Notes: a model not told the origin generated them from the sequence alone. Positions 41,112-57,531 are shown, numbered from the stretch's first letter. The stretch is DNA of 64,000 nucleotides from Verrucomicrobiota bacterium (GCA_050012855.1 JBEKGJ010000002.1:24842-88841); one strand, 5' to 3'. Numbers and translations are program-made.

Positions 41112-41558
41112 GCCGAAGGGCGTTTCCGCCCCCGCCCGTCGGGTTGACGGGCAGGGCTTCCCCTGCCGAAGCTCGACCCCTCGCCGCGGCCGGCTGGGGG
41201 GCGGGGGTTAGGAAGTCTCCTTTTTGGCCGGCACACCACCAACGGACCCGGCGCGCCCCCTTTTTGGCGGGGTGGCGTCAGCGTTCACTGTCGGTCGTGA
41301 ACCACAGGGGTCTTTGGGGCTTCCGGCGGCGGGCACCGCGTGTCCCCGCGTTCGGCAAATGAGGACTCCCCCTTTTTCCGCGCCGACCGTCCCCACGGTA
41401 CCCGGCCCCGGCCCCGCCATTCGTCCGGCGTCTCCGCGATGAGACTCCCGTTTTTCAAGGCCCCGGATTTTCCGGGAATGTCCGCCCGGCTCTGACCATT
41501 GGACACGGCATGTCCAATCATCCCTTGACACCCGCGCCCCAGCGGCCGATGGTCTGTC

Positions 41559-41981
41559 ATGGCCCGTTTCAGTGCCGCTAACGCCCGCGAAATGGCCGCT
41601 CGCTCCGTCGCTGTGCGAAAAGCAGCGGAAGCTCAACGATGCGCCGAGCGGGAGTCCGCCGCTCAGTTCCCGTCGTACCAGCGGCTCGGTTACGGGGAGG
41701 ATGGGTTTGCCGCGCGGCGTCTGGCCCGTGTCTCCAACCAAATCGAGCGGGTCAACAGCATGATTGACGGGGAGCGCGATCCCAGCCGGCTGGAGCGGCT
41801 AACCCGGGCGCTGTCAGTTCTCTACAACCTGGACACCCAGCTACGCCGCCCGGCCAGCGACAGCAAGGGCCGGTTAAGCCGGGCTTTCATGCGCGAGCAC
41901 AGCCGCGAAATGGTCAGCGGGTTCGCCGACACACCGCCGCCGCAAGACGAGGGCGCGGAGTCCGACGCCAACTTGGCCTAA
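41559..41981 (+). CDS. Hypothetical protein (element-borne)
   Basis: 140-aa ORF, MARFSAANAREMAARSVAVRKAAEAQR.... A TTGACA-N17-GATGGT motif ends 5 nt before its ATG. Its 3' end lies in repeat A, which flanks the TA cassette. Confidence 0.5.
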   Translation: MARFSAANAREMAARSVAVRKAAEAQRCAERESAAQFPSYQRLGYGEDGFAARRLARVSNQIERVNSMIDGERDPSRLERLTRALSVLYNLDTQLRRPASDSKGRLSRAFMREHSREMVSGFADTPPPQDEGAESDANLA

Positions 41982-42202
41982 GACGCCGCGGCGAGCGGTG
42001 GCGCGGTGTCCGTGAGGCGGTGAAGGCGCGGTCGGCCGCGGAGCCGGAGGCGCCCCAGCCCTCAGCGCCGCCGGTTGGTGCGCCGCCCCCAGCCAAAGGC
42101 CCGCGCCATTCCAAGGTCCGCGATCTGCACCGTTGACTCAGCCTTGCCCGCCACCGAAACAGTGGCCGACTGACTACGTCGCGCGCCAGTAGCGGCGGCC
42201 AA
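41942..42202 (+). repeat. Direct repeat A flanking the TA cassette
   Basis: Block 1 (41942-41978) matches 43482-43518 at 35/37. Block 2 (42131-42202) matches 43656-43727 at 69/72. The sequence between the blocks has diverged. Confidence 0.85.
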
Positions 42203-42265
42203 TTGCCGACCGCCGCCTTCCCGCTCGTGCCGCTGACCGCTTCACGTCGTCAGACGGAGCCGCTT

Positions 42266-42715
42266 TCAACTCTTGACGATTGAAACGCTTCCATCCCGGC
42301 TCACATGCGCTACGAATGGCGGCGACACGGTTGCGCAAAGTCTCTTCATCGCTGGCAGAGCCTTCACAAAAATCTGGCCGATTTCCGCGCCGCTCAAATC
42401 GCCTCGCGCCGTCAGCACGAAGGCGCGGACTTTGGCCGTCATCAGAGCGTTCGTCTCGACTGCGCGGTAACGGAGATGCTTGTCTTTGGTCAGCACGACC
42501 CAGCCTCGCTTGCCTGCTTCTGCGAGCCACGTTCGGTCTTGTGCGTCCTGCGGGAAATGGTCGTCGTGAAGCTCGATCTGCGCGCCAGCGGCGCGGAGGG
42601 CATCGGGAATGACACGACGCCCGAGGGAGCGGTCAACAAAAAAGACCAGTGGCTCAGGCGGCGAGGGCAAGTTCAACCCGGACTGCTTCTTCGACGTGTC
42701 CGCGCTCGCAGTCAT
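42266..42715 (-). CDS. DUF5615-type PIN-like putative toxin
   Basis: PLVFFVDRSLGRRVIPDALRAAGAQIELHDDHFPQDAQDRTWLAEAGKRGWVVLTKDKHLRY resembles the Mut7-C/DUF5615 PIN-like family that partners DUF433. The start is uncertain (ATG 42715 overlaps the antitoxin; a TTG near 42676 is possible). Confidence 0.6.
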   Translation of the reverse strand: MTASADTSKKQSGLNLPSPPEPLVFFVDRSLGRRVIPDALRAAGAQIELHDDHFPQDAQDRTWLAEAGKRGWVVLTKDKHLRYRAVETNALMTAKVRAFVLTARGDLSGAEIGQIFVKALPAMKRLCATVSPPFVAHVSRDGSVSIVKS

Positions 42716-43343
42716 AATCCTGGGCCAGTTCGTCAATGGATTCCCCCGCCTTGTAACGCTCCGCGACGATGCTTGTTGCAATGCCCCTCCGCGCTATCGC
42801 GGGACGACCAAAGGAAACATAGGGGTCAATGACGATGATCTTCGGCTCATCAGCCTCGCGCTTGCGGGTGAACGGATAGAGGCGGACGGCCAGCCCCCCC
42901 GCGTCGTGCTCCACGCGGCGCAAGTGGGCGGCGAGCATTTCCTTCATGGCCAACTGGCCCGCTTGCGAAACCGCGATCAGCTTCTCGAAGCGGGACAAAA
43001 ACAAATCCATGCCATCGGTTTGAAACTTGTGGTCCGCCAGCGGATGCGGGACGCGGAAATACCGGTTCACGTAGTCGAGCGCGGCGCGAACCTTGGGCAA
43101 CGGAATATCGTGCTCGCGGCGAATGGCGTCCAGGATGTGCGCTTCCACCAGATTGACGAACGAAAGCGAAGCTAGGTTCGAGTCCGGGAGTTCGATCAAC
43201 GGCTTGAAAAACCGCTGCCCCCGGCCGGTCGGGTAATAACGGCCACGCACCCACGAGCGCAACGTCGCCACGGGGATGCGCAGATAATGCGCCGCCTCGC
43301 CGATGCTGTAGGCGGGCATTTCACGCGGATCGTTGGACTTCAT
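42654..43343 (-). CDS. HTH + DUF433-type putative antitoxin
   Basis: The start ATG at 43343 gives MKSNDPREMPAYSIGEAAHYLRIPVATLRSWVRGR (MerR-like HTH). The C-terminus DPYVSFGRPAIARRGIATSIVAERYKAGESIDELAQDYDCERGHVEEAV matches the DUF433 pattern. Confidence 0.72.
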   Translation of the reverse strand: MKSNDPREMPAYSIGEAAHYLRIPVATLRSWVRGRYYPTGRGQRFFKPLIELPDSNLASLSFVNLVEAHILDAIRREHDIPLPKVRAALDYVNRYFRVPHPLADHKFQTDGMDLFLSRFEKLIAVSQAGQLAMKEMLAAHLRRVEHDAGGLAVRLYPFTRKREADEPKIIVIDPYVSFGRPAIARRGIATSIVAERYKAGESIDELAQDYDCERGHVEEAVRVELALAA

Positions 43344-43481
43344 CTGGCTCGTGTGCGGTTTGAACGGCGTTCTGTTTTGTATCGTGTCCGGGTGAACATA
43401 CGCGCTGCGCTGATTGCAGGAAAGGTCTATTTCATTCCGAAAAGGCAAGGCGGCGATTGGCGGCTGGCCGGCGCCACCAGC

Positions 43482-43727
43482 GCAAGACGAGGATGCGGAG
43501 TCCGACGCCAACTTGGCCGAGGACGCCGCCGCTCGCCTTGCGGCGCCGACCACCGACTCAGCGAAGCTCAGGCCCTTCTGCGGATGCGGCTCAATTCACA
43601 GTGAAGATCAGACGGCAATCTGAATCCTTGAGCCGCCAACGCCGGCCACGGTCGCCGTTGACACAGCCTTGCCCGCCGCCGAAACGGTGGCCGACTGACT
43701 ACGTCGCGCGCCAGTAGCGGCGGCCAA
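43482..43727 (+). repeat. Direct repeat B flanking the TA cassette
   Basis: See repeat A. In copy B the reading frame continues past ...ESDANLA (ORF 43414..43623), whereas copy A ends with TAA. Confidence 0.85.
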
Positions 43728-44187
43728 CCAATCAAGCCAGCAACCGCCGGATCGGGTCCGGGAGGCTGAACGGGTGCCACGCCGGGAAGCGGACATTGTT
43801 TGCCGTAGGATTCAGCTTCTACGCGGCACAACCCATTGCGACCAGCGATCTTCGGTGCATCACCAACACGCGCGGCGGGTTGGAAAGCCGCATGTAGTTG
43901 AGCTTGAATTCCAACATTGCCGCGCGTGCCTGTTCTGGCTATTCTCGATGGTGTTCGGAAAAAAGAAACGACGACAGAGCTTTAACACCAAAAACCATTT
44001 CGCGTAGCTACGGCTACGGTCTCACCCAAAAACCGCCAGTTTTACGAGTGCAGAGACCGACCGAGCACGCGCCCACACGGGCGCGGCTTGGCGTATTCTC
44101 TGCACGGGCGCCTGGCGGTGCCTTGGGTGGGGGTGCGTTGAGTTCGCGCCCCTTTTGTTCCGTGGTTCGCGGTTGCGCTCGCGCGCA

Positions 44188-47100
44188 ATGTCTGAGCCAA
44201 AACAAGAATCTGCGAAGTCAGTCAAGTCGCCTGTCACTGACTACCGGCACGCGACGAAACGCAAAAACAACCCGCCCGCTGGACTCGCGGCTTCCGGCGA
44301 AATCAAAGAAGCGCCCAAGCTCCATTTCGCCTACAACCCACACCTGCCGCCCAAACTCCGCTCCGATCCCACTGGCAAGGCGGATGCCCTGCCGGAACTG
44401 CTCCACGACGCCACCACGCGCAAGCTCACCAAAGACGAGGCCCGCCTAGTGGCCGATGCACTCCGCAACCAGGAGCCGTGGCTGGAATGGAGTGGCAAGC
44501 AGGAGAAAAAGGCGTTCGCGGTCGAGCCTGTGGCGCTCCACATTCACGAGCGCATTTCGGCGCAGGCCATTCTCAAGGTCGCGGCGCGGGAGGACGTGCA
44601 GCGCGATATGTTTGCCGACCCGCAACTCTCCTATCAGCAGGCCGTGCAGTTCTACGAGCATGACGTGGACTGGGCCAACCGCATGATTCTGGGCGACTCC
44701 CTGCAAGTGATGGCCAGCCTCGCTAGGCGTGAGGCGCTGGCAGGCAAGGTGCAGATGATTTACCTCGACCCGCCCTACGGCATCAATTTCAAATCCAACT
44801 TCCAGCCAGAAATTCGCAAGCGCGAGGTGAAAGACAAAGAGAGCGACCTGACTCGCGAACCGGAAATGGTGAAGGCGTACCACGACACCTGGACACTGGG
44901 CGTTCATTCTTACCTTGCCTACCTGCGCGACCGGCTCATCCTCGCCCGCGAACTGCTTGCCGACGCCGGCAGCATCTTTGTTCAGATCTCGGATGAAAAT
45001 GTTCACCGAGTCCGGTTGTTGCTGGATGAGATTTTCGAGGGCGGGAATTTCATCAGTTTGATAAGCTACAAGACAACGCAAAGCGCAGGCTCATCCAAGT
45101 TGGATACTTCCTGCGACTATCTGATTTGGTATGCAAGAAACCACGAGAAGTTAGAGTGCCGCGCCCTTTTCAAGAAGCTTGTCAGGGGCGAAAAAGGGGC
45201 AACGCGATACGATTTCGTTGAGGACATGGAAACTGGTGCGGTGCGTCGAACTACAGAGGAAGAAGAAGAGGCAAATGCAATACCGGACACTTGCAGGTTG
45301 TTTACCGACCAAGGTTTGACCTCGCGCGGAGAAGGTTCGGAAAACACGATGTCGGCAATCACATTTGAGGACGACAACTATTATCCATCCGTCGGACACT
45401 GGCGCACAACCGTTGCCAACATCATGGGGCGTGTAATCCCGGCGGGCAGAGTGATCAAGACCGGGAAAAACAAACTGAGATTCAAGAAGTGCTTTAAGGA
45501 TTTTGGTTGCTTAGAGTTAACGAACTTTTGGGACGACGTAGGGGGTGGAATACAGAGCAGGAATGACCCGAAGATTTATGCTGTTCAGACCTCCTCCTCA
45601 ATCATTCAGCGTTGTCTGTTGCTTACTACCAAGCCGGGAGACCTGGTTTTAGACCCGACCTGCGGCAGTGGCACGACTGCGTTCGTGGCCGAGCAGTGGG
45701 GGCGTCGCTGGATTACCATTGACACCAGCCGTGTGGCGTTGGCGCTGGCCCGCCAGCGATTGATCACGGCCAGGTTTGATTTTTACAAGCTGCGCGAGGA
45801 TGGGAAAGGCGTCGCGGGTGGCTTCGTCTGTGAAACCGTTCCTCACATCACGCTTGAATCTATTGCAAAGAACGTGGCGTTGGACGGCATCTTCGCCAAG
45901 CACCAGCCCATTCTCGACGCAAACCGCAAGATGTTGAACGAGGCGTTGAGGCGCGTCACTGCCGACCTGCGCCAGAAACTCAACGCCAAACTGCTCGAAA
46001 AGGAAAAACGCGAGGGCAAGAAGGCCGTGACTGAAGCTGACCGCCGCCGTTGGTCGCTGCCCAAAGAGCCGTGGCGCGAATGGGAAGTGCCTTTCGACGA
46101 GGACGAGGACTGGCCTGCCACGTTGCAGACAGCGCTTAAGAAATATCGGGCCGCGTGGCGGATGAAGATGGACGAGGTCAACGACGCCGTTTCCAAAAAC
46201 GCCGAGCCAGAGGAACTGGTGGACAAGCCGGAAGTGGCCAAGGGCGTGGTGCGGGTGTCCGGCCCGTTCACGATGGAAGCGGTGATGCCCGCCGAAGAAG
46301 GGCTTGAATGGGAAACCCCCATTGGCGGCGAGCTGGACGAGATGGAAACTTTCGGCGCTGAAGGCGCGGGCGAGTCTGTCGCAACCGCGAACGAACCCGC
46401 CAATGCCGAGGCGTATCTGGACAAGATGCTGCGATTGCTCAAGGCGGACGGCGTGCGCTTCCCGAACAACAAGGTAGCCAAGTTTTCGCGGCTTGAACGG
46501 TGCCAAAGCGGCGACTTTCTGCATGCCGAAGGTGAGTGGACGGCGGAGAATGGCAAAGAGCGAAAAGTCGCCGTGTCGTTCGGTCCGCAGTTCGGTTCGG
46601 TCACAGCCTATCAAGTGGAGCACGCCTTGCGGCAGTCACACAGGCGCGGGTTTGATGACTTGGTATTCGCCGGGTTCAGCTTCGATGCGACGGCGCAAGC
46701 GGTCATTCAGGAGGAGACGGACCTGCCCAAGCCAAAGGTCCGGCCCCACATGTCTCACATTTCCCCCGACGTGAACATGGGCGACCTGCTCAAGACCACG
46801 CCCAACTCGCAAATCTTCACCGTGTTCGGTACCCCGCGTACGGACTTGCGGCCCACGGCTGACGGCCAGTGGGAAATCGAAATGCAGGGCGTGGACGTTT
46901 ACAACCCGGTGGATAACACCATCCTGCCCACCAGCGCCGACAAAGTGGCGGCGTGGTTTCTGGACACGGATTACGACGGGCGGACGTTCTGCATCACCCA
47001 GGCATTTTTCCCGGATAAGAGAGCGTGGGAAAAGCTGGCCAAGGCGCTCAAGGGCGTGGTGGACGAAGCGGCGTTTGCCGCCTTGAGCGGCACGGTGTCG

Positions 47101-47208
47101 CTGCCGTTTCCGACCGGCCTACGCAAGCGCGCCGCGGTGAAGGTGATTGACCCGCGTGGCAACGAAGTGATGCGGGTGCATCGGTTGAACGGGAAGAAAA
47201 CATACTGA
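44188..47208 (+). CDS. mod: Type III-like R-M system DNA methyltransferase (Mod), beta-class N6/N4 MTase
   Basis: Motif IV (VQMIYLDPPYGINF) precedes motif I (LVLDPTCGSGTTAFVAEQWGRRWITID). About 500 aa of extra C-terminal sequence follow. The stop is 9 nt before res. Confidence 0.88.
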   Translation: MSEPKQESAKSVKSPVTDYRHATKRKNNPPAGLAASGEIKEAPKLHFAYNPHLPPKLRSDPTGKADALPELLHDATTRKLTKDEARLVADALRNQEPWLEWSGKQEKKAFAVEPVALHIHERISAQAILKVAAREDVQRDMFADPQLSYQQAVQFYEHDVDWANRMILGDSLQVMASLARREALAGKVQMIYLDPPYGINFKSNFQPEIRKREVKDKESDLTREPEMVKAYHDTWTLGVHSYLAYLRDRLILARELLADAGSIFVQISDENVHRVRLLLDEIFEGGNFISLISYKTTQSAGSSKLDTSCDYLIWYARNHEKLECRALFKKLVRGEKGATRYDFVEDMETGAVRRTTEEEEEANAIPDTCRLFTDQGLTSRGEGSENTMSAITFEDDNYYPSVGHWRTTVANIMGRVIPAGRVIKTGKNKLRFKKCFKDFGCLELTNFWDDVGGGIQSRNDPKIYAVQTSSSIIQRCLLLTTKPGDLVLDPTCGSGTTAFVAEQWGRRWITIDTSRVALALARQRLITARFDFYKLREDGKGVAGGFVCETVPHITLESIAKNVALDGIFAKHQPILDANRKMLNEALRRVTADLRQKLNAKLLEKEKREGKKAVTEADRRRWSLPKEPWREWEVPFDEDEDWPATLQTALKKYRAAWRMKMDEVNDAVSKNAEPEELVDKPEVAKGVVRVSGPFTMEAVMPAEEGLEWETPIGGELDEMETFGAEGAGESVATANEPANAEAYLDKMLRLLKADGVRFPNNKVAKFSRLERCQSGDFLHAEGEWTAENGKERKVAVSFGPQFGSVTAYQVEHALRQSHRRGFDDLVFAGFSFDATAQAVIQEETDLPKPKVRPHMSHISPDVNMGDLLKTTPNSQIFTVFGTPRTDLRPTADGQWEIEMQGVDVYNPVDNTILPTSADKVAAWFLDTDYDGRTFCITQAFFPDKRAWEKLAKALKGVVDEAAFAALSGTVSLPFPTGLRKRAAVKVIDPRGNEVMRVHRLNGKKTY

Positions 47209-47217
47209 GTCGCTGCC

Positions 47218-50200
47218 ATGCCTGCCGCCAAGCAACAGGAGATTCCGATTCAGCCGGTCAACAAGCCGATTCTGTGCAGCCCGTTTGAAGAACCAGGGGA
47301 GCACTGGCAATACAAGACCGACACCGGCGAGGCGTTTCGCGTGTCCACGCGCCGCCCCGGCGCGTACTGGTTCAAGAGCCGGCGCACCGGCACGGCGCAA
47401 AAGGAGTTCGGTTTCATCACCGAGGAAGAAAGCGAACCGCTGCCGCTGGTGAACGCGCTGCGGGAAGACGTACGCAAGTGGCGCGACGGCGGTTACGAAA
47501 ACGCCACGCCGGTCACGAGGCAATTGCTACGGCACTGGTGGAGCAAAGACCGTGCACGGCGTTTGTTCTTCTGCCAGTTGGAAGCGGTCGAGACGATTAT
47601 CTACTTGAATGAAGTGCTCGCCTCGGGAAAGAAGCCGCGCTGGAAACCGGCGTTCAGCGTCGAGGATTTTCACGCGCTGCGTCGAGGCGAGCGGCCAACC
47701 GGTTTAGAACTTCCGCCGAATCAACTGGTGTATCCATCGCTGGTGGACAAACCGAACGAGCCGGAGTTTCCGCCGCTCACACGCTACGGCTGCAAGATGG
47801 CGACTGGCAGCGGGAAAACCGTCTTAATGGCGATGTTGATTTCGTGGTCGTTCTGCAATCGAGGTCGCGTGCCAGGCGATACGCGCTTCCCCGATGCCGT
47901 CCTGGTGACGTGTCCGAATCTCACGATCAAGGAACGGTTGCAAGTCCTGCGGCCCGATAACCCGGACAACTATTACGAAGCGTTCGATCTGATTCCATCC
48001 TCTGAGCTTCGCGAGTTGTTGAGGCGTGGCAAAGTGCTCATCACAAACTGGCATTGGTTCAATCCCGAATCGCCGCACAGTGAGGGCGGCAGGAGTTTCG
48101 CGGTTGTCAACAAGGGTGAGGAAAGCCCCGAAGCCTTCGCGCGTAATCGTCTTGGCGAGCTTTACGATCGTGCGCCGATCCTCGTGTTGAATGACGAAGC
48201 GCATCACGCCTACAGGCCCGCCCCTGTCGGCCCGAATGAGAAACTGACGGCGGAAGAAAGGGTTGAACGTGAGGAAGCCACAGTCTGGATTTCCGGCCTG
48301 GACACGATCAACGCCGCGTGCGGCATCAAGTTCTGCGTGGACTTATCCGCCACGCCTTTTTATCTGTTCGGCAGCGGCTACGTCGAAGGCTCGCCGTTTC
48401 CGTGGCTGGTGAGCGACTTCGGTTTGGTGGACGCGATTGAATCCGGCATCGTGAAGATTCCACGCATCCCCGTGAGCGACACCACCGGCAGGCCGGAGCC
48501 GAAATTCTTTACGTTGTGGAAGCAGATTACCGCCAATCTGCAACCGGGTGAGAAATTGCCCGGTGGCAAGCCCAAGCCGGATGTTGTGTGGCGCGAAGCG
48601 GAGGATGCGTTGACTACGCTGGCGGCGCAATGGAAAGAACGTTTTGAGTATTACCAAAACCGTGAGCCGGGTAAGGAGCAAGTGCCGCCTGTGATGATCG
48701 TGGTCAGCGACAACACCGACATCGCCCAGCTTTTCTACGAAAACCTCTCCGGTGAGCAGACGGTGGAAGTCGTCAATGCCAACGGGAATGAGAAAGACGA
48801 CGAAGACGAGGAAGAAGAACCGACCGCAAGAAAGAAGAAGCCAAAGACAAAGACGGTTTACGGAACTGGCAAACTGTTTCCGGCGCTTTTTTCAAACAGT
48901 GAGGGGTGCAAGCCGACGCTTCGGATTGACTCGAAATTGCTGGCAGAGGCGGAAAGCGAAGATCCAAACGCGAGTCGCAAAGAGGCCGCAGAGGAATTGC
49001 GGCAAATCGTGGACTCCGTAGGCAAGCCGGGTAAACCCGGCGAGCAGGTGCGCTGCGTGGTTTCCGTGCAAATGCTTACCGAAGGATGGGATGCGAACAA
49101 CGTCACGCACATTCTCGGCTTGCGGGCGTTTCACAGTCAGTTGCTCTGCGAGCAGGTTGTCGGGCGCGGTCTGCGGAGGATGGACTACACCGTTGACCGG
49201 GAAACCGGATTGCTCACCGAAGAATACGTGGACATTTACGGCGTGCCTTTCTCGGTGATTCCGTTCAAAGGGCGCAAGCCGGGTGGCGGACCTGAGATAG
49301 TGGACAAACCGAAGAATCACGTTTGCGCACTCGATCAACGCGCCGCGATGGAAATGCGGTTTCCCATTGTTGAAGGCTATGTGGTTTCGCTGCGGCAGAA
49401 TTTCATCAAGGCGGATGTCGGCAAGATGGAAACGCTGCGCCTTGAACCTTTCCACATGCCCACGGCGGTTTTTGTGAAGCCACAAGTCGGCTATCAGATG
49501 GGCACGCCATCGTTGACGGGCGGCTTTCAGTTTGTGGAGCAAGACCGCGAAGCTTACTACCGCGAAACGCATCTCCAAACGATCAAGTTTGAAATTGCGC
49601 GGCTGGTTGTTTGGGCGCTGACTAACGCGACACCGCTCGGCACGCCGAAACTGCGGCTGCGCTCGCGTCACCAGTTGTTCCCGCAGGTTTACCGGCTGGT
49701 TGAGGAATACGTCAGTCGCAAGGTGGATTTCCACGACTGCCACTCGTGCGAACTTGGCTTGCAGACCTACGTGCAACGCACTGTCGAACGCTTGCTTGCC
49801 GCCATCGAACCTGACGACGCCAAAGGCGAACCGCCGTTGTTGCCGATTCTGAATCGCTCCAAGCCAATCGGCAGTTCAGCGGAAGTGAGCTTCCCAACAA
49901 TCCGGCCCTGCTGCGGCACGTTCAAGAGCCACGTCAACCAGGTAGTTCTCGACACTGACACTTGGGAGCAGACGGCAGCGTTTCGCTTGGAACAGTCGAA
50001 GGCGGTGAAGTTCTACGTTCGCAACGATCACTTGGAACTCACCATTCCTTACGAATACCTCGGCGTCAGCCACAGCTACATTCCAGACTTCATCGTGCGT
50101 CTGATGAACGACGTGAACTTGCTTCTGGAAATCAAAGGCGATGTTCCTGATAAAGCGCGAGCCAAACACCAGGCGGCGCGTCGGTGGGTTTCAGCCGTGA

Positions 50201-50301
50201 ATAATTGGGGCAAGCTGGGCAAGTGGCAGTTTCACCCTTGCCTCGATCCACAGATGTTGGGGCGCGAACTGGATTGGCTGCAACGCTCTACCACGCAATG
50301 A
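47218..50301 (+). CDS. res: Type III restriction enzyme Res subunit (SF2 helicase + PD-(D/E)xK nuclease)
   Basis: Motif I [14 protein letters not shown], motif [13 protein letters not shown], motif VI [36 protein letters not shown], and a C-terminal nuclease block YIPDFIVRL...NLLLEIKGD. Confidence 0.88.
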   Translation: [1027 protein letters not shown]

Positions 50302-50571
50302 CATTTTCGGTTTCAGCATGAAGCAACTGAGACAGGACAGGCAATCCGAACGGCTCCGCGAACGAAGCGGGTTGCTGATGGACCGGGAGCAGTGCCGGCG
50401 TGCGCTGGAGAGGAGGCGTTGGAAGAATTCGCGGGCCACATTTGGAAGACCAGGCGCGCGAGCGCGGCGGGGGACGTGTCGGCGCTGGAGCGGGAGATAG
50501 ACGAGTTGGTGTATGTGCTCTACCGCCTGACGGCGGAGGAAATCAGAATCGTGGAGTCGTCCAGCGCATGA
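50302..50571 (+). pseudogene. Relic of the C-terminal tail of a type IIG/PglX-like methyltransferase-restriction protein
   Basis: The frame ending at 50571 reads ...GDVSALEREIDELVYVLYRLTAEEIRIVESSSA*, with no ATG in frame. ORF 50318..50500 (MKQLRQDRQSERLRER...) lies in another frame. The stop overlaps the AAA+ start (ATGA). Confidence 0.4.
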
Positions 50572-51698
50572 AGAACGTGGGGAATTACGAGAAGAACAGA
50601 CGGTTCCATGAGCGGATTGGACGCCTCATGGTGCATGGGCATTATCGCCGCGCCTTGGAATTGTTGGACAGACTCATCGAAGACACGCTGCCGTTGTTTC
50701 ACGGCGAGGATTGGGTCATTGAAGAAAGGCGGTTGGCCTGGCTTTACCGGACTGAATTGTTGCGTGAGTGGGGGCGGTTGACCGAGGCGCTGGCTTGGGT
50801 GTGTCTGGAAGTGGAGATGAACCCGTCCAACGTTGCCGCTGTGGCCTTGAAAGAGCGGTTGAAGCGGGAAGCCGGGTTGCATCGGCGGCAGGATGGTGGA
50901 ACACAGATCGCTGTCAGCGGCGACAAGCCGACCCGAACGGCTTGGGGCGGCGTGGCCGGGATGCGCGACCTCAAGGCCATGTTGGAGCGTGATGTCATCC
51001 TGCCGCTGCAAGAGCCTGACATCTACGCCCGCTACCGCTTGAATCTCCCCAACGGCATCCTGCTTTATGGCCCGCCCGGCTGCAGCAAGACGTTCATCGC
51101 CCGCAAGCTGGCGGAAGTCGCGGGTTTCAATTTCATGGAAGTAACGCCGGGCGATTTGGCGAGCATCTATGTTCACGGCACGCAGGGGAAGATCGCGGAA
51201 CTGTTCGGCCAAGCGCGCAAACAGGCCCCTTGCATGATGTTCTTCGACGAACTCGACGCGATGGTGCCGAATCGGGGCGGGGATTTCGTCGGCCACCACT
51301 ACGCCAGCGAGGTCAATGAATTCCTGGTGCAATTGAACGAAGCCGGCAAGAACCGCGTGCTGGTGATTGGCGCCACGAATCTGCCGGAGCGGATTGACCC
51401 CGCCGTGTGCCGGCCCGGACGGCTGGACAAAAAGTTCTTTGTCGGGCCGCCCGACTACGAGGCGCGGGTCGAGTTACTTCGCCTCTACCTGGCCAACCGC
51501 CCGCAGGAAGCCATTGACTGGCACAATTGCGCCGGGGAGCTTGAAAACTACACCTGCGCCGAGATTGAATTCATCGTGAACGAGGCGGCCCGAATCGCGC
51601 TCGCCCAAAACCGACCCATCATCAACGGCGACATTCTGAATGCCGCAGGCAACAACCCGTCCGCGCTTTCCGCATCCGACATTGAGAAAATGAGATGA
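50568..51698 (+). CDS. Classic-clade AAA+ ATPase with a helical (TPR-like) N-terminal domain
   Basis: The internal ATG at 50568 gives MKNVGNYEKNRRF.... Walker A LLYGPPGCSKT, Walker B CMMFFDELD, second region of homology VLVIGATNLPERIDPAVCRPGRLDKKFFVGPPD. Confidence 0.9.
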   Translation: MKNVGNYEKNRRFHERIGRLMVHGHYRRALELLDRLIEDTLPLFHGEDWVIEERRLAWLYRTELLREWGRLTEALAWVCLEVEMNPSNVAAVALKERLKREAGLHRRQDGGTQIAVSGDKPTRTAWGGVAGMRDLKAMLERDVILPLQEPDIYARYRLNLPNGILLYGPPGCSKTFIARKLAEVAGFNFMEVTPGDLASIYVHGTQGKIAELFGQARKQAPCMMFFDELDAMVPNRGGDFVGHHYASEVNEFLVQLNEAGKNRVLVIGATNLPERIDPAVCRPGRLDKKFFVGPPDYEARVELLRLYLANRPQEAIDWHNCAGELENYTCAEIEFIVNEAARIALAQNRPIINGDILNAAGNNPSALSASDIEKMR

Positions 51699-51766
51699 CC
51701 CTGGCGCTGCCCTCTTGATGCCTGAACCAATTTGCCAGCGCGCTTTAGGTGAGGTAGATTAGCGCA

Positions 51767-53221
51767 ATGAAGTGTTCTGAATCGGAAGGAGAAGGCGACA
51801 CCACCGCTGGGGTGGAGCCGGAAGACTTCGAGGATTTCGACTACTACTGGCAGCACTTACGGCGGAACTTTGGATACTGCATGGCGGTTGGCGGCATCGC
51901 GTGGAACGAGATGGTTTATCGTTCCGGCGAAACGTTGGGGCGGTTAAGCAAAGTGCGTCACTCGCTCTTCCATCAAAGGCGAGAGTCCGCGGCCTGTTGC
52001 CTCCTGCCTACGCCTGTCGCGGCTGGAGAAAAGGACAGTGGCACGGCATTGCGAGAGGTGTTGAAAAAGAAGCCCAATTTCTTTCAGACCGCACAATGGC
52101 AAACGATCAAAGTAAAAGCATCGGCTGCCGAGCCTGTGGCCTTTTGGAACTTTGGTGGCCCGCACCGATGCGCGTGGAGGGATTATTATGATGGCGAGAA
52201 GTATGAAGACAAACTCTGGAAAGACCCTCGCCAGGATTACTATGAGCGTTTTGCCTTTCGGACAGACGCCCATCACCCGGATATGCATGAAGTGGGGCGA
52301 GAATTTGCGTTTCTGCACATGAATTTGGAGATAAAGGAACAAGAAGCCAGCCACGAGAAGCACCTCGCGCACTCGGCAAAACAACATGGTCGGTCAGTTG
52401 AAGAAGAAGGGAAAGTGAAACAGGCAGAGCACGAGGAAGCGCGGGAAAGGATGAGGCGGTTTCTGGAAGCGCACGCCCGAATGGATTTTGTGGCTGACAC
52501 CCGCTTGCCGTGGGCAACAGTCAGCCGGGCGATGGAAGCCGAATGGGAAAGGATTAAGAATTTACGCCGCCGCGTAGGACTCGAAGCAAACGAGCAACCG
52601 CCAAGAAAGCGCGAATGGAAAAAGCAACTCGAAGTGTATGACGCTTACTTTCCGCACTGGCTAGAGAACCGAAAAAAGATTGCCGCGTTGCCGCGCATCT
52701 GGCGCGAGAATCTTGGCTTTCAGGAAGCGTTCACTTTGCTGGAGGTCAAGCTGACGCCGGAAGCCGCAACCGTTGCGCAACTCATGGACGAGCGAGGCTT
52801 GAAGCCGAAAGGTGTGTTCAAGTTCACGGACAGGTTTCTCCGCAAGCTGGAAAGAGCTTCTTACATGGAAGCCGCAACTCGTGGATTGTCGGACAGGTCA
52901 AAACCAAAACACGGGTCAGGCGCAAAAGGCGTGTTCGACGATGCGAGCCAGCCCGCGGCAGTGATCGAGTTCGATTACGGCGCCGTTGATGCCCTGCTCG
53001 ACGGCGGTGAAGGGCCAGATGTTGAGCCGGGAACTTCATCCGAATGGAGCGAAACAGTGCTGAACACACTGCAATCGTGGCGTCCGCACTTCTGCATCAC
53101 GAAACCGCAACTCCCACCTAACTTGGCGGAAATGGGTGCCGACAAGCGCCGTGAATGGTTCAGAGTCGCACGGCAGCGAATTGAATCACTCTGGCCGCCA
53201 GTGGACTACGACAAGCTCTGA
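51767..53221 (+). CDS. Hypothetical 484-aa protein, no recognisable domain
   Basis: A long ORF with no competing ORF of similar length. TTGCCA-N17-TAGATT ends 6 nt before its ATG. It has an acidic N-terminus, a charged helical centre and no TM segment. Confidence 0.65.
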   Translation: MKCSESEGEGDTTAGVEPEDFEDFDYYWQHLRRNFGYCMAVGGIAWNEMVYRSGETLGRLSKVRHSLFHQRRESAACCLLPTPVAAGEKDSGTALREVLKKKPNFFQTAQWQTIKVKASAAEPVAFWNFGGPHRCAWRDYYDGEKYEDKLWKDPRQDYYERFAFRTDAHHPDMHEVGREFAFLHMNLEIKEQEASHEKHLAHSAKQHGRSVEEEGKVKQAEHEEARERMRRFLEAHARMDFVADTRLPWATVSRAMEAEWERIKNLRRRVGLEANEQPPRKREWKKQLEVYDAYFPHWLENRKKIAALPRIWRENLGFQEAFTLLEVKLTPEAATVAQLMDERGLKPKGVFKFTDRFLRKLERASYMEAATRGLSDRSKPKHGSGAKGVFDDASQPAAVIEFDYGAVDALLDGGEGPDVEPGTSSEWSETVLNTLQSWRPHFCITKPQLPPNLAEMGADKRREWFRVARQRIESLWPPVDYDKL

Positions 53222-53255
53222 CTTAATTTTCAGAATTAAGCCCCCGCCTTTTTCG

Positions 53256-53283
53256 GCAATGCCCATTGTTATATGGGCATTGC
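53256..53283. promoter_or_regulatory. Perfect 11-bp inverted repeat (candidate operator)
   Basis: GCAATGCCCAT-tgttat-ATGGGCATTGC. The right arm begins at the first ATG of ORF 53273. Confidence 0.5.
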
Positions 53284-53593
53284 AATACATGACGTTTCAG
53301 GCAGCGGCGGGCAGCCAATCGCAAGCAGGGGTGTGCGCGCAACCCGCACCGTGTGCCGCGACAGAGGGGTCAGCGACGTGACCTTTTTGAGATGGGAGCG
53401 GCGCGGGTGGATCAAAACTATCAACATTTGCGGCAAGAAATACGTTGATCTTCAATCGCTTGTGGAGTTCGACCGACGGGCGGCGGCGGGCGAATTTGCC
53501 AAGCCGCCGGCAGGGGCAGCGGGTAAGTCGGCTGAGGCGCGAGCAGAGCGGAAGGCACAGGCGGACGCCGCTAACAGCAAGGCGAGTGCGTGA
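53273..53593 (+). CDS. Excisionase/AlpA-like HTH DNA-binding protein
   Basis: TRTVCRDRGVSDVTFLRWERRGWIKTINICGKKYVDLQSLVEF resembles AlpA/Xis-type HTH proteins. The stop overlaps the primase start (GTGA). The true start may be the GTG at 53333. Confidence 0.55.
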   Translation: MGIAIHDVSGSGGQPIASRGVRATRTVCRDRGVSDVTFLRWERRGWIKTINICGKKYVDLQSLVEFDRRAAAGEFAKPPAGAAGKSAEARAERKAQADAANSKASA

Positions 53594-55974
53594 GCACGTT
53601 CCCTGACGCATTTCGCGCTGCCATGCAGGCCGCTGGACTCGACTTCACCGGGCCGGTTGTGGCCGACGGCAAACTGCATCGCTTCCGAGCGGGACGGGAC
53701 ACGGCGCGGAATTCGTGGTTTGTGCTTCACGCTGGACCGCCCGCCGCGGGCGCGTTCGGATGTTGGAAGCGCAGCATCAAGGAAACGTGGTGCGAACGTA
53801 ATGGCAGCCTGTCACAAGTGGAGTGGGATGATGTCCGCCGACGCTGGCAGGAAGCCCAAGCCGAGCGTGAACGGACGGAAGCTACGTTGCAGGCCAAGGC
53901 GCGCAGAACCGCTGCCTTCATTCTCGAAAGGTCCGTCGCGCCGGACGGTAACGCCTATCTGGCGAAGAAAGGCGTAAAACCGCACGGCGAGCTTCGGCAG
54001 TGGCGCGGTGCCTTGCTGGTGCCTCTACGCGACGCGGACGGCACGCTCCACAGTCTGCAATTCATCGGCGCGGACGGCTCCAAACGGTTTCTCACTGGCG
54101 GGCGTTGCGCCGGCTGTTTCTTCACCGTCACCGACAAGGCGGACGGCCCGCTGGTCATTTGCGAGGGCGTCGCCACTGGCGCCAGCATCCACGAAGCGAC
54201 TGGTCTTGCGACCGTGGCCGCAATGAACTGCGGGAACCTGCCCGCCGTGGCGAGCGCATTGCGGGCCAAGTGGCCAACGCGGGAAATCATCATCGCCGCC
54301 GACAACGACGCTTGGACGCCCGACAATCCCGGCTTGAGCAAGGCGACCGAAGCCGCAAAGACCATCCGTGCCAAACTCGCCGTGCCGCACTTCGCGGACG
54401 TGAGCGCCAAACCAACCGACTTCAACGACCTTCACCAACTGGAAGGACTGGACCCCGTGCAAAATCAAATCCAAGCAGCCGAAACCCCGAAGGAAACCGA
54501 TGAGGAGCGATTGCAACGCCTCGCCTCTCTTTCGCCGATTGACTTCGACCGATGCGCCAAGAGTGAAGCGGACGCCATGCATGTCAACATGGGCACCCTC
54601 CGCAGCGAAGTGGAAACGCGCCGCCCAAAGCCGGAAGCCACACGAGCAGACCTGACCGCCGATTTGCTGCCGCAGCGCGAACCGGAACCCTGGGCGCATG
54701 AGGTGGACGGCGCTGCATTGCTCGATGACCTCGCCGCCGCGTTGAACCGCTTCGCCGTATTCGCCCCGCACGCCGCCGACGCGCTCGCGCTGTTCATCCT
54801 GGCAACTTACGCCGCCGACCGGTTCGACGCCGCACCGTATGTCAACTTGCGAAGCCCGGAAAAGCGGTGCGGCAAGTCGCTGGTCATGCGGCTTCTGTCC
54901 AAGCTCTGCGCCCGCGCCCTGCCCGCCGGACCGTGCAGCGAAAGTGCCATCTTCCGCGCCATCGCGGCCGTGACGCCGACGCTCCTGATTGACGAAGTGG
55001 ACACGTTCTTCGCCGACCACGACGAATTGCGCGGCATGTTGAACGTCGGCTGCATCCGCGACGACGCGTTTGTTCTGCGGACCGAAGAGACCATTCGCAA
55101 CGGCGCCCGCGAGTTTGTCCCGCGCCGCTTTTCGGTTTTCGGCCCGAAAGTGTTCGCGGGAATTGGCAAACTCGCGGACACACTCACGGACCGGTGCGTG
55201 GTTATTGTCATGCGTCGCAAGCGTGCCGATGAGAACCGGGAGCGATTCCGTCGCCGGAAGTTTGACGCCGAACCGCTCCGCCAGAAGTGCCGGCGGTGGG
55301 CAGACGACCACGCGGACAAGCTGAGCGCGAGCGAGCCGGACCTGCCAGGCGAGTTGAACGACCGCGCCGCTGACTTGTGGGAACCGATGCTGGCCGTCGC
55401 GGACCTCGCCGAGGAAGGATGGTCCGAACGCGCTCGGGCCGCCGCCATTTCGCTCTCGGGCGAAACAGAAGAAATCGCGCCCGCCAGTCTTGGCACCATG
55501 TTGCTTGCAGACGTTCGCGCCGTGTTCACCGAAGTCGGTGAGGACCGATTGGCGTCTGTAAGTCTCTGCGAACGGCTCAACGGCATGGAAGAAAGACCGT
55601 GGCACGAAATCCATCACGGCAAACCCCTGAATCCGAACCAGCTTGCCCGATTGCTTGCGCCCTACAGCGTCGCTAGTCGAAAAGTCCGACTGGGCGATAG
55701 TACCCGGCAAGGCTACTACGCTGACGATTTCTCCGACGCTTGGGCGAGATACGTCCCGATCCCCAGGGCGGTGCCTCCGAAGTGGAACAATGGAACAAGC
55801 CCCGAAAACAAAGGCGATTCTCGCACTTCCGAAGTGGAACAAACGGAAGCCGTGTTCCACCTTGAAACGGCTGAGAAACCCAATAACGGCGCGGGTTGTT
55901 CCGTTGTTCCACTTTCGACCCTGCCGCCACTGGCGCAAGCGATAAAGGAACACTCCGAAGCCTTGATCTTGTGA
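53590..55974 (+). CDS. Toprim-domain primase fused to a DUF3631-like C-terminal domain (element replication protein)
   Basis: Toprim block PLVICEGVATGASIHEATG...IIIAADNDAW. The C-terminal part, SPEKRCGKSLVMRLL...TLLIDEVDTFF...DRCVVIVMRRK, is typical of DUF3631 proteins of integrative elements. Confidence 0.82.
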   Translation: MSTFPDAFRAAMQAAGLDFTGPVVADGKLHRFRAGRDTARNSWFVLHAGPPAAGAFGCWKRSIKETWCERNGSLSQVEWDDVRRRWQEAQAERERTEATLQAKARRTAAFILERSVAPDGNAYLAKKGVKPHGELRQWRGALLVPLRDADGTLHSLQFIGADGSKRFLTGGRCAGCFFTVTDKADGPLVICEGVATGASIHEATGLATVAAMNCGNLPAVASALRAKWPTREIIIAADNDAWTPDNPGLSKATEAAKTIRAKLAVPHFADVSAKPTDFNDLHQLEGLDPVQNQIQAAETPKETDEERLQRLASLSPIDFDRCAKSEADAMHVNMGTLRSEVETRRPKPEATRADLTADLLPQREPEPWAHEVDGAALLDDLAAALNRFAVFAPHAADALALFILATYAADRFDAAPYVNLRSPEKRCGKSLVMRLLSKLCARALPAGPCSESAIFRAIAAVTPTLLIDEVDTFFADHDELRGMLNVGCIRDDAFVLRTEETIRNGAREFVPRRFSVFGPKVFAGIGKLADTLTDRCVVIVMRRKRADENRERFRRRKFDAEPLRQKCRRWADDHADKLSASEPDLPGELNDRAADLWEPMLAVADLAEEGWSERARAAAISLSGETEEIAPASLGTMLLADVRAVFTEVGEDRLASVSLCERLNGMEERPWHEIHHGKPLNPNQLARLLAPYSVASRKVRLGDSTRQGYYADDFSDAWARYVPIPRAVPPKWNNGTSPENKGDSRTSEVEQTEAVFHLETAEKPNNGAGCSVVPLSTLPPLAQAIKEHSEALIL

Positions 55975-56333
55975 CGACCGCACCCGAAATTTACCAGTGC
56001 GCCGCCCGGCTTGGGTTGACGCTTGAAGCCAGAGGCGACAAGCTCGCCGTCATTCCGGGCCGCCGTTGCCCACCAGAGTTTGCTGACGTGTTACGCGAAC
56101 ACAAAGGCGAGCTTTTGAGCTTCCTTGAAGCCAGGGCCGCTAACTTGGCCCCCGATTGTGCGCCGTGGCTCCACGTTGCCCGGCAAATCCTGGCCGGGGA
56201 GTTCGACGGCGCGGACAAATCCACCCTGCAAAGCCTCCTCATCGGCCTCCGTAGCATCCGGCATCCGCTCTGCCAGCAGGCTCTAGGTTGTCTAAAATGG
56301 CAGGGAGCTAAAGGCGGACTGGCCGAACCCTGA
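55971..56333 (+). CDS. Hypothetical small protein (TubC-N-like motif)
   Basis: A GTG start overlaps the primase stop (GTGA). LGLTLEARGDKLAVIPGRRCPPEFADVLREHKGELLSFL resembles the docking-type motif common in phage and ICE small proteins. Confidence 0.45.
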   Translation: MTTAPEIYQCAARLGLTLEARGDKLAVIPGRRCPPEFADVLREHKGELLSFLEARAANLAPDCAPWLHVARQILAGEFDGADKSTLQSLLIGLRSIRHPLCQQALGCLKWQGAKGGLAEP

Positions 56334-56341
56334 ACGTCAAC

Positions 56342-56806
56342 ATGGACGGACGACCCCGAAACCGACACATCCCGGCGTCACTCCGCCTTGCGTGGGGCTT
56401 CGCCTACGCAGTCAAACTCATCGAGGCGGCCCTGCGTGAAATCCAGGACGACCGTCTGACAGAAGACCAGGCCCGGTTCCGAGATTCACTTTACGATCTG
56501 CTGGACGAGCTTACGCCGACAGACGACCGCCTGACGTTGAAACCAACGAACCAGCAGCTTGCGGACAAGTACGCCGTCAGCCCGCGAACCGTCACCAACT
56601 GGCGCAAGGAGGATTGCCCCTTTGAGGCTGGGCAATGGCGGGTGTTGGATTGGATGGCCGAGCGGCGATACGTTCCCGCCAGAGCGAAGGCCAAGTTCGC
56701 GCGCCAACTTGAGCGCCGAACTTGCCAGGGATTGGACGGGTTGGCCCCGTTGGAGGTGCAGGCGAAAGCACTGGCCAAAGCTGTCCGGGCGCTGGGGCGA
56801 TTCTGA
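56342..56806 (+). CDS. Hypothetical protein with a possible HTH
   Basis: 154-aa ORF. LADKYAVSPRTVTNWRKEDCPF looks like a helix-turn-helix. Confidence 0.45.
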   Translation: MDGRPRNRHIPASLRLAWGFAYAVKLIEAALREIQDDRLTEDQARFRDSLYDLLDELTPTDDRLTLKPTNQQLADKYAVSPRTVTNWRKEDCPFEAGQWRVLDWMAERRYVPARAKAKFARQLERRTCQGLDGLAPLEVQAKALAKAVRALGRF

Positions 56807-57129
56807 GTGGGTGAAATCAACTGTCGCCTGTAGCAAGGTGAACTGTCCCATTGCATACAGTTCCCCCCAGTTTTCAAGGCGGGAAATGACATCCGTATGG
56901 TGGTAATCGAGCGAAAATGTCTGTTTGGAAAAGCGCCGATTTTGGCACCTCACCGCGCAAAGTCGCAAAAACAGGCGGGAATCAATTGCGACAGAAATTG
57001 CGACACTATCGGTAATTCAATTGAAACCCGCCATTGACGTGGTTGAAGCCCATTTCAGCCAATGAAATCAATGGTTTTTATCGCTTTCGTTGAAACGTGA
57101 AGCTGCCCCTTGAAAACGCAGAAAGTGAA

Positions 57130-57169
57130 AACCTGAATCTAGCGCGTCTGCCAATTCCGCCACGCGCGC
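57130..57169. repeat. attR core (orphan copy of tRNA-Leu nt 1-40)
   Basis: Identical 40-mer to 39682-39721. No T-arm or acceptor 3' half follows it. Confidence 0.9.
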
Positions 57170-57258: not shown

Positions 57259-57480
57259 GTGACCGCCGAACCAAACCAGACCGCAGGGCCAACCGGCAAA
57301 TCACACAGCCACCACTTGTCCAGCGACGGCAAATGGCGCTCGTTTCCAAAGATCCCGCACTTGCTGCAGTACGTCAGCAGGGAAACCTTCTACGGGAGAA
57401 CCAAGGTCAATGGCAAGATCATTCGCCAGATCGCCAGATCATTCGACAGAGCCTTGAAACCGCTTCATGCATACGCGCTG
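57259..57480 (+). pseudogene. Relic of a second integrase (N-terminal ~50 codons only, frameshifted)
   Basis: GKWRSFPKIPHLLQYVSRETFYGRTKVNGKIIRQ, then after a 20-nt offset duplication (GATCATTCGCC at 57417 and GATCATTCGAC at 57437) the reading SLET continues in another frame. No catalytic domain follows. Confidence 0.45.
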
Positions 57481-57502
57481 AATCGCAGCGCGCGGGGATG
57501 CC

Positions 57503-57531
57503 TTGACACACCGGTAGTGCGGGCGTAGAGG
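57503..57531 (+). promoter_or_regulatory. Candidate promoter of the first H-X9-DG gene
   Basis: GCCTTGACA (-35 at 57503-57508), 17-nt spacer, TAGAGG (57526-57531). The ATG lies 7 nt downstream. Almost the same pattern occurs at 58415-58443. Confidence 0.35.

Follow-up and report, generated by a model that had tools for sequence, protein, structure and literature searches.

We analysed a 64,000-nucleotide (nt) stretch of DNA from a Verrucomicrobiota bacterium (GCA_050012855.1 JBEKGJ010000002.1:24842-88841), hereafter the window, in which a 17.4-kb element (39722-57169) is integrated at a tRNA-Leu gene. The element carries, in order, an integrase gene, small genes, the restriction-modification (R-M) genes mod and res, a gene for a 376-amino-acid (aa) AAA+ ATPase, a gene for a 484-aa protein here called the orphan, a 106-aa gene, a primase gene and two small genes before the right attachment site, attR (Table 1). 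An earlier note on this DNA had proposed that the AAA+ ATPase and the orphan form a two-gene anti-phage defence module in the cargo slot of the element. Both open reading frames (ORFs) were found where it had placed them, on the + strand and 68 nt apart, and it had also read the flanking genes correctly, with Mod and Res upstream and the 106-aa gene and a Toprim+DUF3631 primase downstream. The conserved module itself is refuted by the distribution of the two families.

To examine this distribution, 34 loci encoding close homologues of the orphan were collected from metagenome-assembled genomes (MAGs) of Limisphaerales and other Verrucomicrobiota and from metagenomes, with flanks of up to 10 kb. 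An AAA+ gene was present in none of the 34 (tblastn at 1e-5; phmmer at E<=1). Equally, an orphan-family gene was found in only two of the eight distinct AAA+ contexts sampled, the window included. The orphan was instead syntenic with integrase, xis-like and primase genes. The earlier note had itself held that the module should be given up if homologues of the 484-aa protein lay apart from AAA+ genes or belonged to the element's own machinery; they proved not to be syntenic with AAA+ genes and to be part of the element backbone.

The window DNA also changes its relationships between the two genes. Similarity to AAA+ loci extends over 50529-51698 and ends at the AAA+ stop codon, and similarity to orphan loci begins at 51732. 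The latter position is the first base of a promoter-like site with -35 and -10 elements that are conserved in five other orphan loci (L005, L012, L021, L026 and L033), which bears out the earlier suggestion that the second gene has a promoter of its own. Because this site ends 6 nt before the orphan ATG, the layout suggests a leaderless transcript.

Table 1 Features of the integrated element in the window
Feature	Position	Strand	Basis
tRNA-Leu(CAG), integration target	39637-39721	-	ARAGORN
attL, left direct repeat, 5' 40 nt of the tRNA	39682-39721		repeat search and alignment
Integrase, tyrosine recombinase, 446 aa, adjoining the tRNA	39771-41111	+	PF00589 at 3e-14
Mod methyltransferase, type III-like, cargo	44155-47208	+	PF01555 at 5.5e-30; PADLOC MTase_III, 568 bits, 1.2e-170
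Res, superfamily 2 (SF2) helicase-nuclease, BPTD_3080 restriction endonuclease family, cargo	47218-50301	+	NCBIfam NF046055; PF04851 ResIII
Remnant of a former AAA+ gene, 5' end (MKQLRQDRQSERLRERSGLLMDREQCRRALE...)	50318-50415	+	begins 17 nt past the res stop codon
Relic reading frame ending ...ALEREIDELVYVLYRLTAEEIRIVESSSA*	50386-50571	+	translation; TGA overlaps the AAA+ ATG (ATGA)
AAA+ ATPase, classical clade, 376 aa, last gene of the R-M cargo	50568 (ATG)-51698 (stop)	+	Pfam, NCBIfam and PDB matches
Promoter-like site TTGCCA-17-TAGATT, start of the backbone	51732-51760	+	promoter-site scan; start of homology
Orphan, 484 aa, first backbone gene, predicted all-alpha, DUF6499-like N-terminal motif	51767-53221	+	homologue alignments; AlphaFold
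28-nt element: AT-rich palindrome TTAATTTT-N-AAAATTAA, then GCCCCCGCC, then a T-run	53224-53251	+	locus alignments
Inverted repeat, 11-nt arms (53256-53266 and 53273-53283), 6-nt loop, enclosing the ATG of the 106-aa gene	53256-53283	+	
Xis-like small protein, 106 aa, HTH_17-type core	53273-53593	+	hhalign against HTH_17 proteins, P = 1.8e-4
Primase, Toprim + DUF3631, 794 aa	53590-55974	+	PF13362 at 9e-14; PF12307 at 1.2e-49; PHROG DNA primase at 1.3e-75
Backbone protein, 145 aa	55896-56333	+	58% identity to a 112-aa gene in L005-L010
attR, right direct repeat, 40/40 identical to 39682-39721	57130-57169	+	repeat search and alignment

The region has the features of a tRNA-integrated element, namely a tyrosine recombinase, direct repeats containing part of the tRNA gene and a deviating G+C content, measured at 55-63% in the element genes against ~65% in the flanks. 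As attachment sequence, the element duplicates the 5' half of tRNA-Leu(CAG), beginning in the acceptor arm and reaching the anticodon loop, and the 5' end of the intact tRNA gene is abutted by the integrase gene and the rest of the element. Most tRNA-integrating elements duplicate the 3' part of the tRNA gene; the 5'-half duplication seen here is thus unusual. Just outside attR, an 89-aa ORF (57259-57528, + strand) resembles the N-terminal part of the integrase of another group of orphan-bearing elements, the P0020-type (phmmer, 3.9e-14), and may be the remnant of a second element that once lay in tandem at the same site. Among the small genes, one on the - strand (42654-43553) encodes a 299-aa protein with an HTH_66 domain and a C-terminal DUF433; the remaining small ORFs at 41.2-43.8 kb gave no Pfam match, and a 400-aa ORF antisense to the integrase gene likewise had no match.

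The AAA+ ATPase and its genomic neighbours

The AAA+ protein contains the motifs that had been read in it (GPPGCSKT, MMFFDELD and VIGATNLPERIDPAVCRPGRLD). Its match to PF00004 (3.9e-31) spans all 131 positions of the model, AAA_lid_3 also exceeded its Pfam cutoff, and a sub-threshold Pfam match to TPR_16 at residues 21-78 agrees with the TPR-like helical N-terminus described earlier. The architecture is therefore that of a helical TPR-like N-domain of ~120 aa followed by one AAA module and its lid. An alternative GTG start at 50400 gives a longer ORF, but 13 homologues all begin at MKN.... In an alignment of 14 homologues, Walker A, Walker B, the SIYVHG pore loop, sensor 1 (GATN) and the arginines of RPGR(L/M)D are invariant. 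Walker A and B, the arginine fingers of the second region of homology, sensor 1 and the helical lid are together those of the classical clade of PF00004. The closest PDB structures to the AAA module were the D2 domains of Afg2, VAT and p97 (E ~1e-82), and the best NCBIfam models were generic ones, CDC48 (160 bits), FtsH (157 bits) and PAN. No description of an R-M-associated AAA+ protein of this type was found in the literature. The protein is a new member of the classical clade, found in defence islands and covered by no curated defence family.

More than 120 homologues of the same full-length type were recovered at 57-87% identity, with the N-domain conserved as well. At E<=1e-30 the family counts more than 2,600 matches. 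A tblastn search of PLSDB plasmids with the N-domain found nothing, and neither did scans of IMG/VR with the AAA+ protein or with the deeper orphan alignment described below. In seven of the eight contexts the AAA+ gene adjoins a methyltransferase and SF2 helicase-nuclease defence system, although the kind of system differs from one context to another. Both the window and locus L035, from a Verrucomicrobia MAG, have a type III Mod and Res. The other neighbours are an Eco57I-type (type IIG) methyltransferase and an HKD-SNF2 helicase, with a 4-nt overlap with the AAA+ gene (L037); a divergent HKD-SNF2 helicase (L039); an HKD-SNF2 protein and a type IIG restriction endonuclease-methyltransferase (1014 bits; L042); DISARM, with DrmB, helicases and PLD (L043); and a DUF1156 methyltransferase with PLD_Helicase (1493 bits; L045-48). 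The gene after the AAA+ gene is different in each locus, being the orphan, an orphan relative, a HATPase-like gene (L037), a 106-aa gene, a DprA-like gene, a Zn-ribbon membrane protein gene, a TmtA-like gene or none. Because this downstream gene varies in every locus, the consistent association of the AAA+ gene is with the methyltransferase and SF2 helicase-nuclease. The earlier description of both genes as defence-associated cargo consequently holds for the AAA+ gene and fails for the orphan, which is a backbone gene.

In L043 (8001-9865) the AAA+ gene is followed, with a 4-nt overlap, by the gene for a Zn-ribbon membrane protein; in L042 (8001-9707) a gene for a DprA/SLOG-like protein follows after a 10-nt gap; and in L045 (8001-11699) the next gene encodes an 833-aa TmtA-like protein (PADLOC, 1.3e-98). 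These effector-like genes might be variable partners of the ATPase. The L043 gene, encoding 243 aa, was also considered as an analogue of the orphan and was rejected, since its product is a Zn-ribbon membrane protein without the orphan motif.

Upstream of the AAA+ gene in the window, mod and res are separated by 9 nt in one operon, as in type III R-M systems, and Res scored 937 bits against NF046055 (cutoff 800). Two relics (50318-50571) lie in the 266 nt that separate res from the AAA+ gene. The first is a degenerate version of the first ~95 nt of an AAA+ gene; its DNA can be aligned with four AAA+ gene starts, and over 31 aa its translation shows 55% identity with the N-terminal end of the AAA+ protein of L035. 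The second relic frame ends in ...EEIRIVESSSA*, and an ending of the form ...EEI(K/E)IV(E/K)xASA* also precedes the AAA+ start in L045, where it belongs to an intact 64-aa ORF, and in L035. By resemblance only, this second relic may be assigned to the C-terminal end of a gene of methyltransferase type that moves together with the AAA+ cassette; Pfam found nothing in the C-terminal fragment. Because of the relics in the gap and the endings shared with L045 and L035, it looks as if one AAA+ allele was replaced by another through recombination, together with a piece of the upstream gene. The overlapping stop and start codons further suggest an ancestral translational coupling of the AAA+ gene to an upstream gene.

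The 484-aa protein, its loci and the sequence at its stop codon

No catalytic or binding motif had been recognised in the 484-aa protein, and indeed no model of Pfam, NCBIfam, PADLOC or PHROGs matched it at E<=0.01. The profile searches that the earlier note had called for hence placed one protein of the pair, the ATPase, in PF00004 and in no curated defence family, and returned nothing for the other. The orphan is nevertheless a real conserved protein. A word-indexed search gave 24 homologues, 23 of them at 61-77% identity and one a truncated, 100%-identical copy, with many invariant Trp and Arg residues. A second such search with a deeper alignment (A2) added no relatives, and an exhaustive hidden Markov model (HMM) search of 1.84 billion representatives yielded only 29 representative clusters. 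The genomes matched were MAGs of Limisphaerales and Verrucomicrobiae.

Distant relatives (22-36% identity) share three blocks with the orphan. Block 1, at the N-terminus, reads F-x-[FY]-x-W-[QE]-H-L-R-R-N-x-x-Y and corresponds to F24, W28-Q-H-L-R-R-N34 and Y37 of the window protein; block 2 is central (M-D-F-V-x-D-T-x-L-P-W...L-R-x-R-V-G-L...Y-D-A-Y); and block 3 is a C-terminal helix. The motif F..W.HLRRN..Y is invariant or nearly so across the family. A histidine-rich patch that had been singled out earlier is conserved in the close family and absent from the distant relatives.

Block 1 is where the family touches known proteins. PF20109 (Trans_reg_dom, DUF6499) matched six of nine distant relatives there, with E values from 3.5e-5 to 6e-3, and P0170 was the sole relative above the gathering score (24.5 against 23.8 bits). 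When the family profile was compared with PDB sequences, the sole match was RovC (6xz5), through the same motif and at a marginal E = 0.58. Similarly, hhalign against four plasmid-encoded DUF6499-DUF2285 proteins aligned 21 motif columns only (P = 7e-4). An AlphaFold2 model from a shallow alignment (A1) reached a pLDDT of 57, and Foldseek found nothing for it in PDB. The model from alignment A2 (pLDDT 72.4, pTM 0.60) is all-alpha; it had no Foldseek match at E<0.1 in PDB or BFVD, RovC and QseM included, and the structure search proposed earlier thus gave no relative.

In the orphan loci a recurrent gene order was observed, consisting of integrase, orphan, a small HTH_17-like (xis-like) gene and a primase or helicase gene. 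An integrase gene lies just upstream of the orphan in the distinct contexts L003 (same strand), L005-L010 (P0020-type elements; divergent) and L049. In the last of these the integrase gene has a 4-nt overlap with that of the distant relative P0145, after which come HTH_17, a 316-aa protein and AAA_25. Directly downstream of the orphan there is always a small gene on the same strand. It matches HTH_17 directly in L003 (4.5e-5) and L049 and weakly in the L021 homologue, and homologues of the 106-aa protein follow the orphan in L005-L010, L012 and L021. The next gene in many loci encodes a replication protein, whether a DUF3854/Toprim+DUF3631 primase, a PrimPol or a 357-aa rep-like protein, and in the P0020-type elements the primase is followed by a homologue of the 145-aa protein of the window.

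The DNA at the orphan stop codon is sharply conserved in these loci. A 28-nt sequence, TAATTTTCA(A/G)AATTAAGCCCCCGCCTTT, overlaps or directly follows the stop codon and is almost invariant in 11 distinct loci from all subclades; by contrast, identity is ~70% in the coding DNA of the orphan and only ~36% in the stretch lying 60-260 nt downstream. The AT-rich palindrome within it was found once per locus and always at the orphan stop, whatever the downstream gene (13 loci). Outside the window, the conserved sequences at the stop codon were noted at 11453-11513 in L003, 6576-6592 in L011, 11376-11394 in L018 and 9379-9443 in L049. It is followed in the window by the inverted repeat around the start of the 106-aa gene, for which an RNA fold of -24 kcal/mol (z = -3.98) was computed. 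L003 has a compensatory version of this repeat, where the downstream gene starts with ATGAGCAAAG and the left arm is changed to match (CTTTGCCCAT). The sequences at 53224-53283 could be operators, a hairpin masking the start codon or an origin. An intrinsic terminator was considered for this junction and rejected, the palindrome being AT-only, the second hairpin lacking a U-tract and the scan showing no + strand terminator. The conservation of the 28-nt element supports a link between the orphan and the genes downstream of it.

Two further arrangements were noted among the orphan loci. The P0020-type elements (L005-L010) carry cargo on the other side of the backbone, past a second integrase-like gene, comprising DarT with a Macro domain (DarTG-like), DUF2513, a 489-aa protein and a 1096-aa PLD-SNF2 helicase. 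At several chromosomal sites, namely L001/L013 (10001-11700), L014, L016-L018 and L027, an intact orphan homologue is accompanied only by a gene for a 68-80-aa basic protein, and this small gene and the 106-aa gene have related 5' ends. Replication genes were not detected there, and an integrase gene only in L027; in L001 the orphan and its small partner lie between two paralogous amino-acid permease/Usp genes. Such pairs may be minimal or domesticated modules.

Weighing the readings

On balance, and with moderate confidence, we favour a reading in which the AAA+ gene is the trailing gene of the R-M cargo, the orphan is the first gene of the backbone and an FseA-like regulator, and the junction between cargo and backbone runs between them. 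The organisation of the genes and the associations of the two families are shown here; the biochemical roles of the two proteins are inferred. The AAA+ protein is most likely an active hexameric unfoldase or remodeller. It would act on the motor/nuclease subunit of the neighbouring system, and could either provide restriction alleviation while the element establishes itself in an unmethylated host or release stalled complexes. We regard it as a tentative possibility, drawn by analogy, that the AAA+ protein is a portable accessory of many unrelated methyltransferase and SF2 helicase-nuclease systems, that is, an unfoldase encoded with the system and directed at its motor subunits for restriction alleviation or remodelling. 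To our knowledge, the one case of such a role described to date is that of host ClpXP acting on type I HsdR. Elements may also use the conserved AAA+ gene as an anchor for recombination when they exchange R-M cassettes. The orphan, for its part, would be transcribed from its own conserved promoter, would carry the DUF6499 W-x-H-L-R-R-N helix on a novel all-alpha body and, as a regulator of the element, would control the xis-like and primase genes through the palindromic junction at its own stop codon.

Several observations weigh against this reading. On the side of the orphan, the window protein did not match PF20109 even at E<=10, ten family members did not match DUF2285 (PF10074, RovC_DNA-bd) at E<=10, and neither DUF2285 nor any other DNA-binding domain or helix-turn-helix (HTH) was detected by Pfam, hhalign or Foldseek. 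Orphan genes that have only the 68-80-aa partner, with neither integrase nor replication gene (L001, L014 and L018), are unexpected for a pure element regulator. At the junction, the scan gave no + strand terminator-like site between the AAA+ gene and the orphan, and read-through is possible. In L035, moreover, the type III Mod, Res and AAA+ genes are followed after 7 nt, with a GAGGA motif, by the gene for P0152, a 388-aa distant orphan relative (28% identity), and the two genes are probably co-transcribed; because the orphan family is very rare, this recurrence of the order is not chance. On the side of the ATPase, the sample comprises only eight distinct contexts, one of which (L044) is a toxin-antitoxin (TA) and abortive-infection (Abi) island without a helicase-methyltransferase system, and the varied, effector-like downstream neighbours fit an independent defence gene equally well.

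The L035 arrangement bears on two readings in which the ATPase and the orphan work together. One is the self-contained anti-phage pair of the earlier note, with the ATPase as sensor or motor and the orphan as a novel effector, loosely as in IetAS, which we consider very improbable. It would draw on the common strand and short spacing of the genes, on the mobile element and adjoining R-M genes, on the order repeated in L035 and on PADLOC IetA models that match the ATPase at 2e-27, over residues 145-358 only, which is the AAA core. The pairing is not conserved, however, as set out above; the orphan has its own conserved promoter, the homology breakpoints fall between the genes, and no protease, nuclease, SIR2 or TIR signature was found in the orphan, whose synteny is with integrase, xis-like and primase genes. 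The ATPase reached 88.7 bits against the NCBIfam IteA model (NF042959), far short of its 510-bit cutoff, and scored better against the generic CDC48 and FtsH models. The other joint reading has the AAA+ unfoldase controlling a DUF6499-type regulator, by unfolding or anti-activation, and so tying the status of the cargo to excision and replication where both genes are present. This too is improbable. The AAA+ gene does lie directly upstream of the first backbone gene in the related elements of the window, L035 and L043, with the 7-nt gap in L035, and the DUF6499 helix is the known target of an anti-activator, QseM (PMC10359603); most orphan elements, on the other hand, lack the AAA+ gene, and most AAA+ genes lie outside such elements. 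When the window is compared with L035, the AAA+ proteins are 81% identical, against 28% for the orphan and 31% over 165 aa for Mod, and Res has no detectable similarity. Such discordance speaks against co-evolution of the ATPase and the orphan as a pair. In L043 the AAA+ gene again abuts a related backbone, yet it is followed by the unrelated membrane protein gene. Beyond P0152, L035 continues with a primase-helicase (Zn_ribbon_DnaG+AAA_25), HTH_17, HTH_31 and an integrase, and the likelier explanation of this locus is that cargo is inserted at a common point immediately before the first backbone gene. A functional link between the ATPase and the orphan, both kinds taken together, is unlikely.

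Two further readings concern one gene each. Rather than a transcription factor, the orphan could be an accessory of DNA transactions in the backbone, for example one that initiates replication or binds the origin on behalf of the primase, or a cofactor of the integrase or excisionase, with the palindrome as origin or recombination site. Its constant place, with the integrase on one side and the xis-like and primase genes on the other, the absence of a recognisable HTH and the near-invariant AT-rich palindrome with a GC box and T-run, which resembles an origin-type element, all agree with this. We still think it rather unlikely, given that the sole recognisable feature of the orphan is the DUF6499-like motif, known from activators, that the orphan is kept while the replication gene varies (Toprim-DUF3631, DUF3854, PrimPol or AAA_25), which speaks against its being dedicated to one type of primase, and that copies exist without a nearby replication gene. 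The AAA+ gene, in turn, could be an independent single-gene defence or Abi module, or one paired with a variable downstream effector, which merely accumulates in defence islands. We take this as a serious rival, if one with a minority share of the probability: the genes downstream are different and effector-like in L045, L043, L042 and L037, and L044 is an island without any helicase-methyltransferase system. What speaks for a role within the R-M cargo is the upstream neighbour, which is far more consistent than the downstream one, together with the overlap of its start codon with the stop of the preceding gene in L037, in L045 and, as a relic, in the window, and the relic AAA+ copy directly after res.

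The reading of the AAA+ gene as trailing cargo and of the orphan as first backbone regulator removes a false lead, in that the adjacency of the two genes would be an accident of the cargo slot; the case shows that neighbouring positions on a mobile element are poor grounds for postulating a defence module. It also draws attention to a widespread, uncurated AAA+ family that accompanies diverse DNA-modification defences and could explain how mobile R-M-like translocating nucleases are safely established or regulated. The orphan family, rare and verrucomicrobial, appears to extend the activator principle of DUF6499 proteins (FseA/RovC) beyond Proteobacteria with a new fold, and its sharply conserved cis element makes the hypothesis of an orphan regulator directly testable.

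Comparison with known systems

As a whole, the element resembles tRNA-integrated, primase-bearing islands and satellites (P4-like, PICI-like), with a backbone of integrase, regulator, AlpA/Xis-like gene and primase and a variable defence cargo. Unlike P4-like and PICI-like satellites, it shows no capsid-redirecting or packaging genes. The two genes at its cargo/backbone junction had been likened loosely to IetAS, reportedly described by Gao and colleagues in 2020 as the AAA+ ATPase IetA with the subtilisin-like protease IetS. They share with it a PF00004-type ATPase, matched in its AAA core by the IetA models of PADLOC, a defence neighbourhood and a gene directly downstream. The likeness did not hold further, the ATPase falling below the IteA cutoff, the pairing not being conserved and the orphan being no subtilisin-like protease: its model is all-alpha and it lacks a Pfam, NCBIfam or PADLOC match.

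The AAA+ protein is like the D2 domains of Cdc48, p97, VAT and Afg2 in its Walker A and B motifs, pore loop, arginine fingers and lid. In contrast to those proteins it has a single module, with neither a D1 domain nor a double-psi-barrel N-domain, and carries a family-specific helical N-domain of ~120 aa (ERRLAWLYR...EALAW); its home is in prokaryotic defence islands. The Cdc48-like ATPases of CoCoNuT systems have tandem modules and different fusions, whereas the protein described here has one module. The closest functional parallel may be ClpXP, which targets translocating HsdR during restriction alleviation (PMC4231737). By analogy with ClpXP on the type I HsdR of EcoKI, the ATPase would be an AAA+ unfoldase acting on the SF2 motor/nuclease of an R-M enzyme and protecting unmodified self DNA after acquisition of the system. 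ClpXP differs in being encoded by the host, in belonging to the ClpX clade and in working with the ClpP protease; the present ATPase is linked to the system, is of the classical clade and lacks any evident partner protease.

For the orphan, the comparison is with FseA of ICEMlSymR7A and with RovC. In FseA, the DUF2285 HTH docks onto the 'AWEFLRRN' helix (alpha-2) as its structural core, and the anti-activator QseM targets this helix; the promoter that FseA activates is that of rdfS, the excisionase gene (PMC10359603). The orphan likewise has an N-terminal W-x-x-L-R-R-N-x-x-Y helix and is encoded on a mobile element, and its locus shares with proteobacterial FseA/RovC-type loci the order of regulator, small HTH_17-type gene and replication gene. 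Proteobacterial plasmids that were retrieved encode a DUF6499/DUF2285 protein, then a small HTH protein and then RepA, mirroring the order of orphan, HTH_17-like gene and primase. Three IncP-type plasmid loci (L051-L053, from Klebsiella, Pseudomonas and Hydrogenophaga) have a divergent XRE-type HTH gene, DUF2958, DUF6499/DUF2285, a small HTH gene and replication initiator A; this module order is the proteobacterial counterpart of the one seen here. Unlike FseA and RovC, the orphan has no detected DUF2285 extended-turn HTH and no frameshift architecture, it measures 484 aa against about 265 aa, its predicted body is a novel all-alpha fold matching nothing in PDB or BFVD, and its family is verrucomicrobial where theirs is proteobacterial. 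By this analogy the orphan is not a demonstrated member of the FseA family, but it likely works like an element activator of the FseA type.

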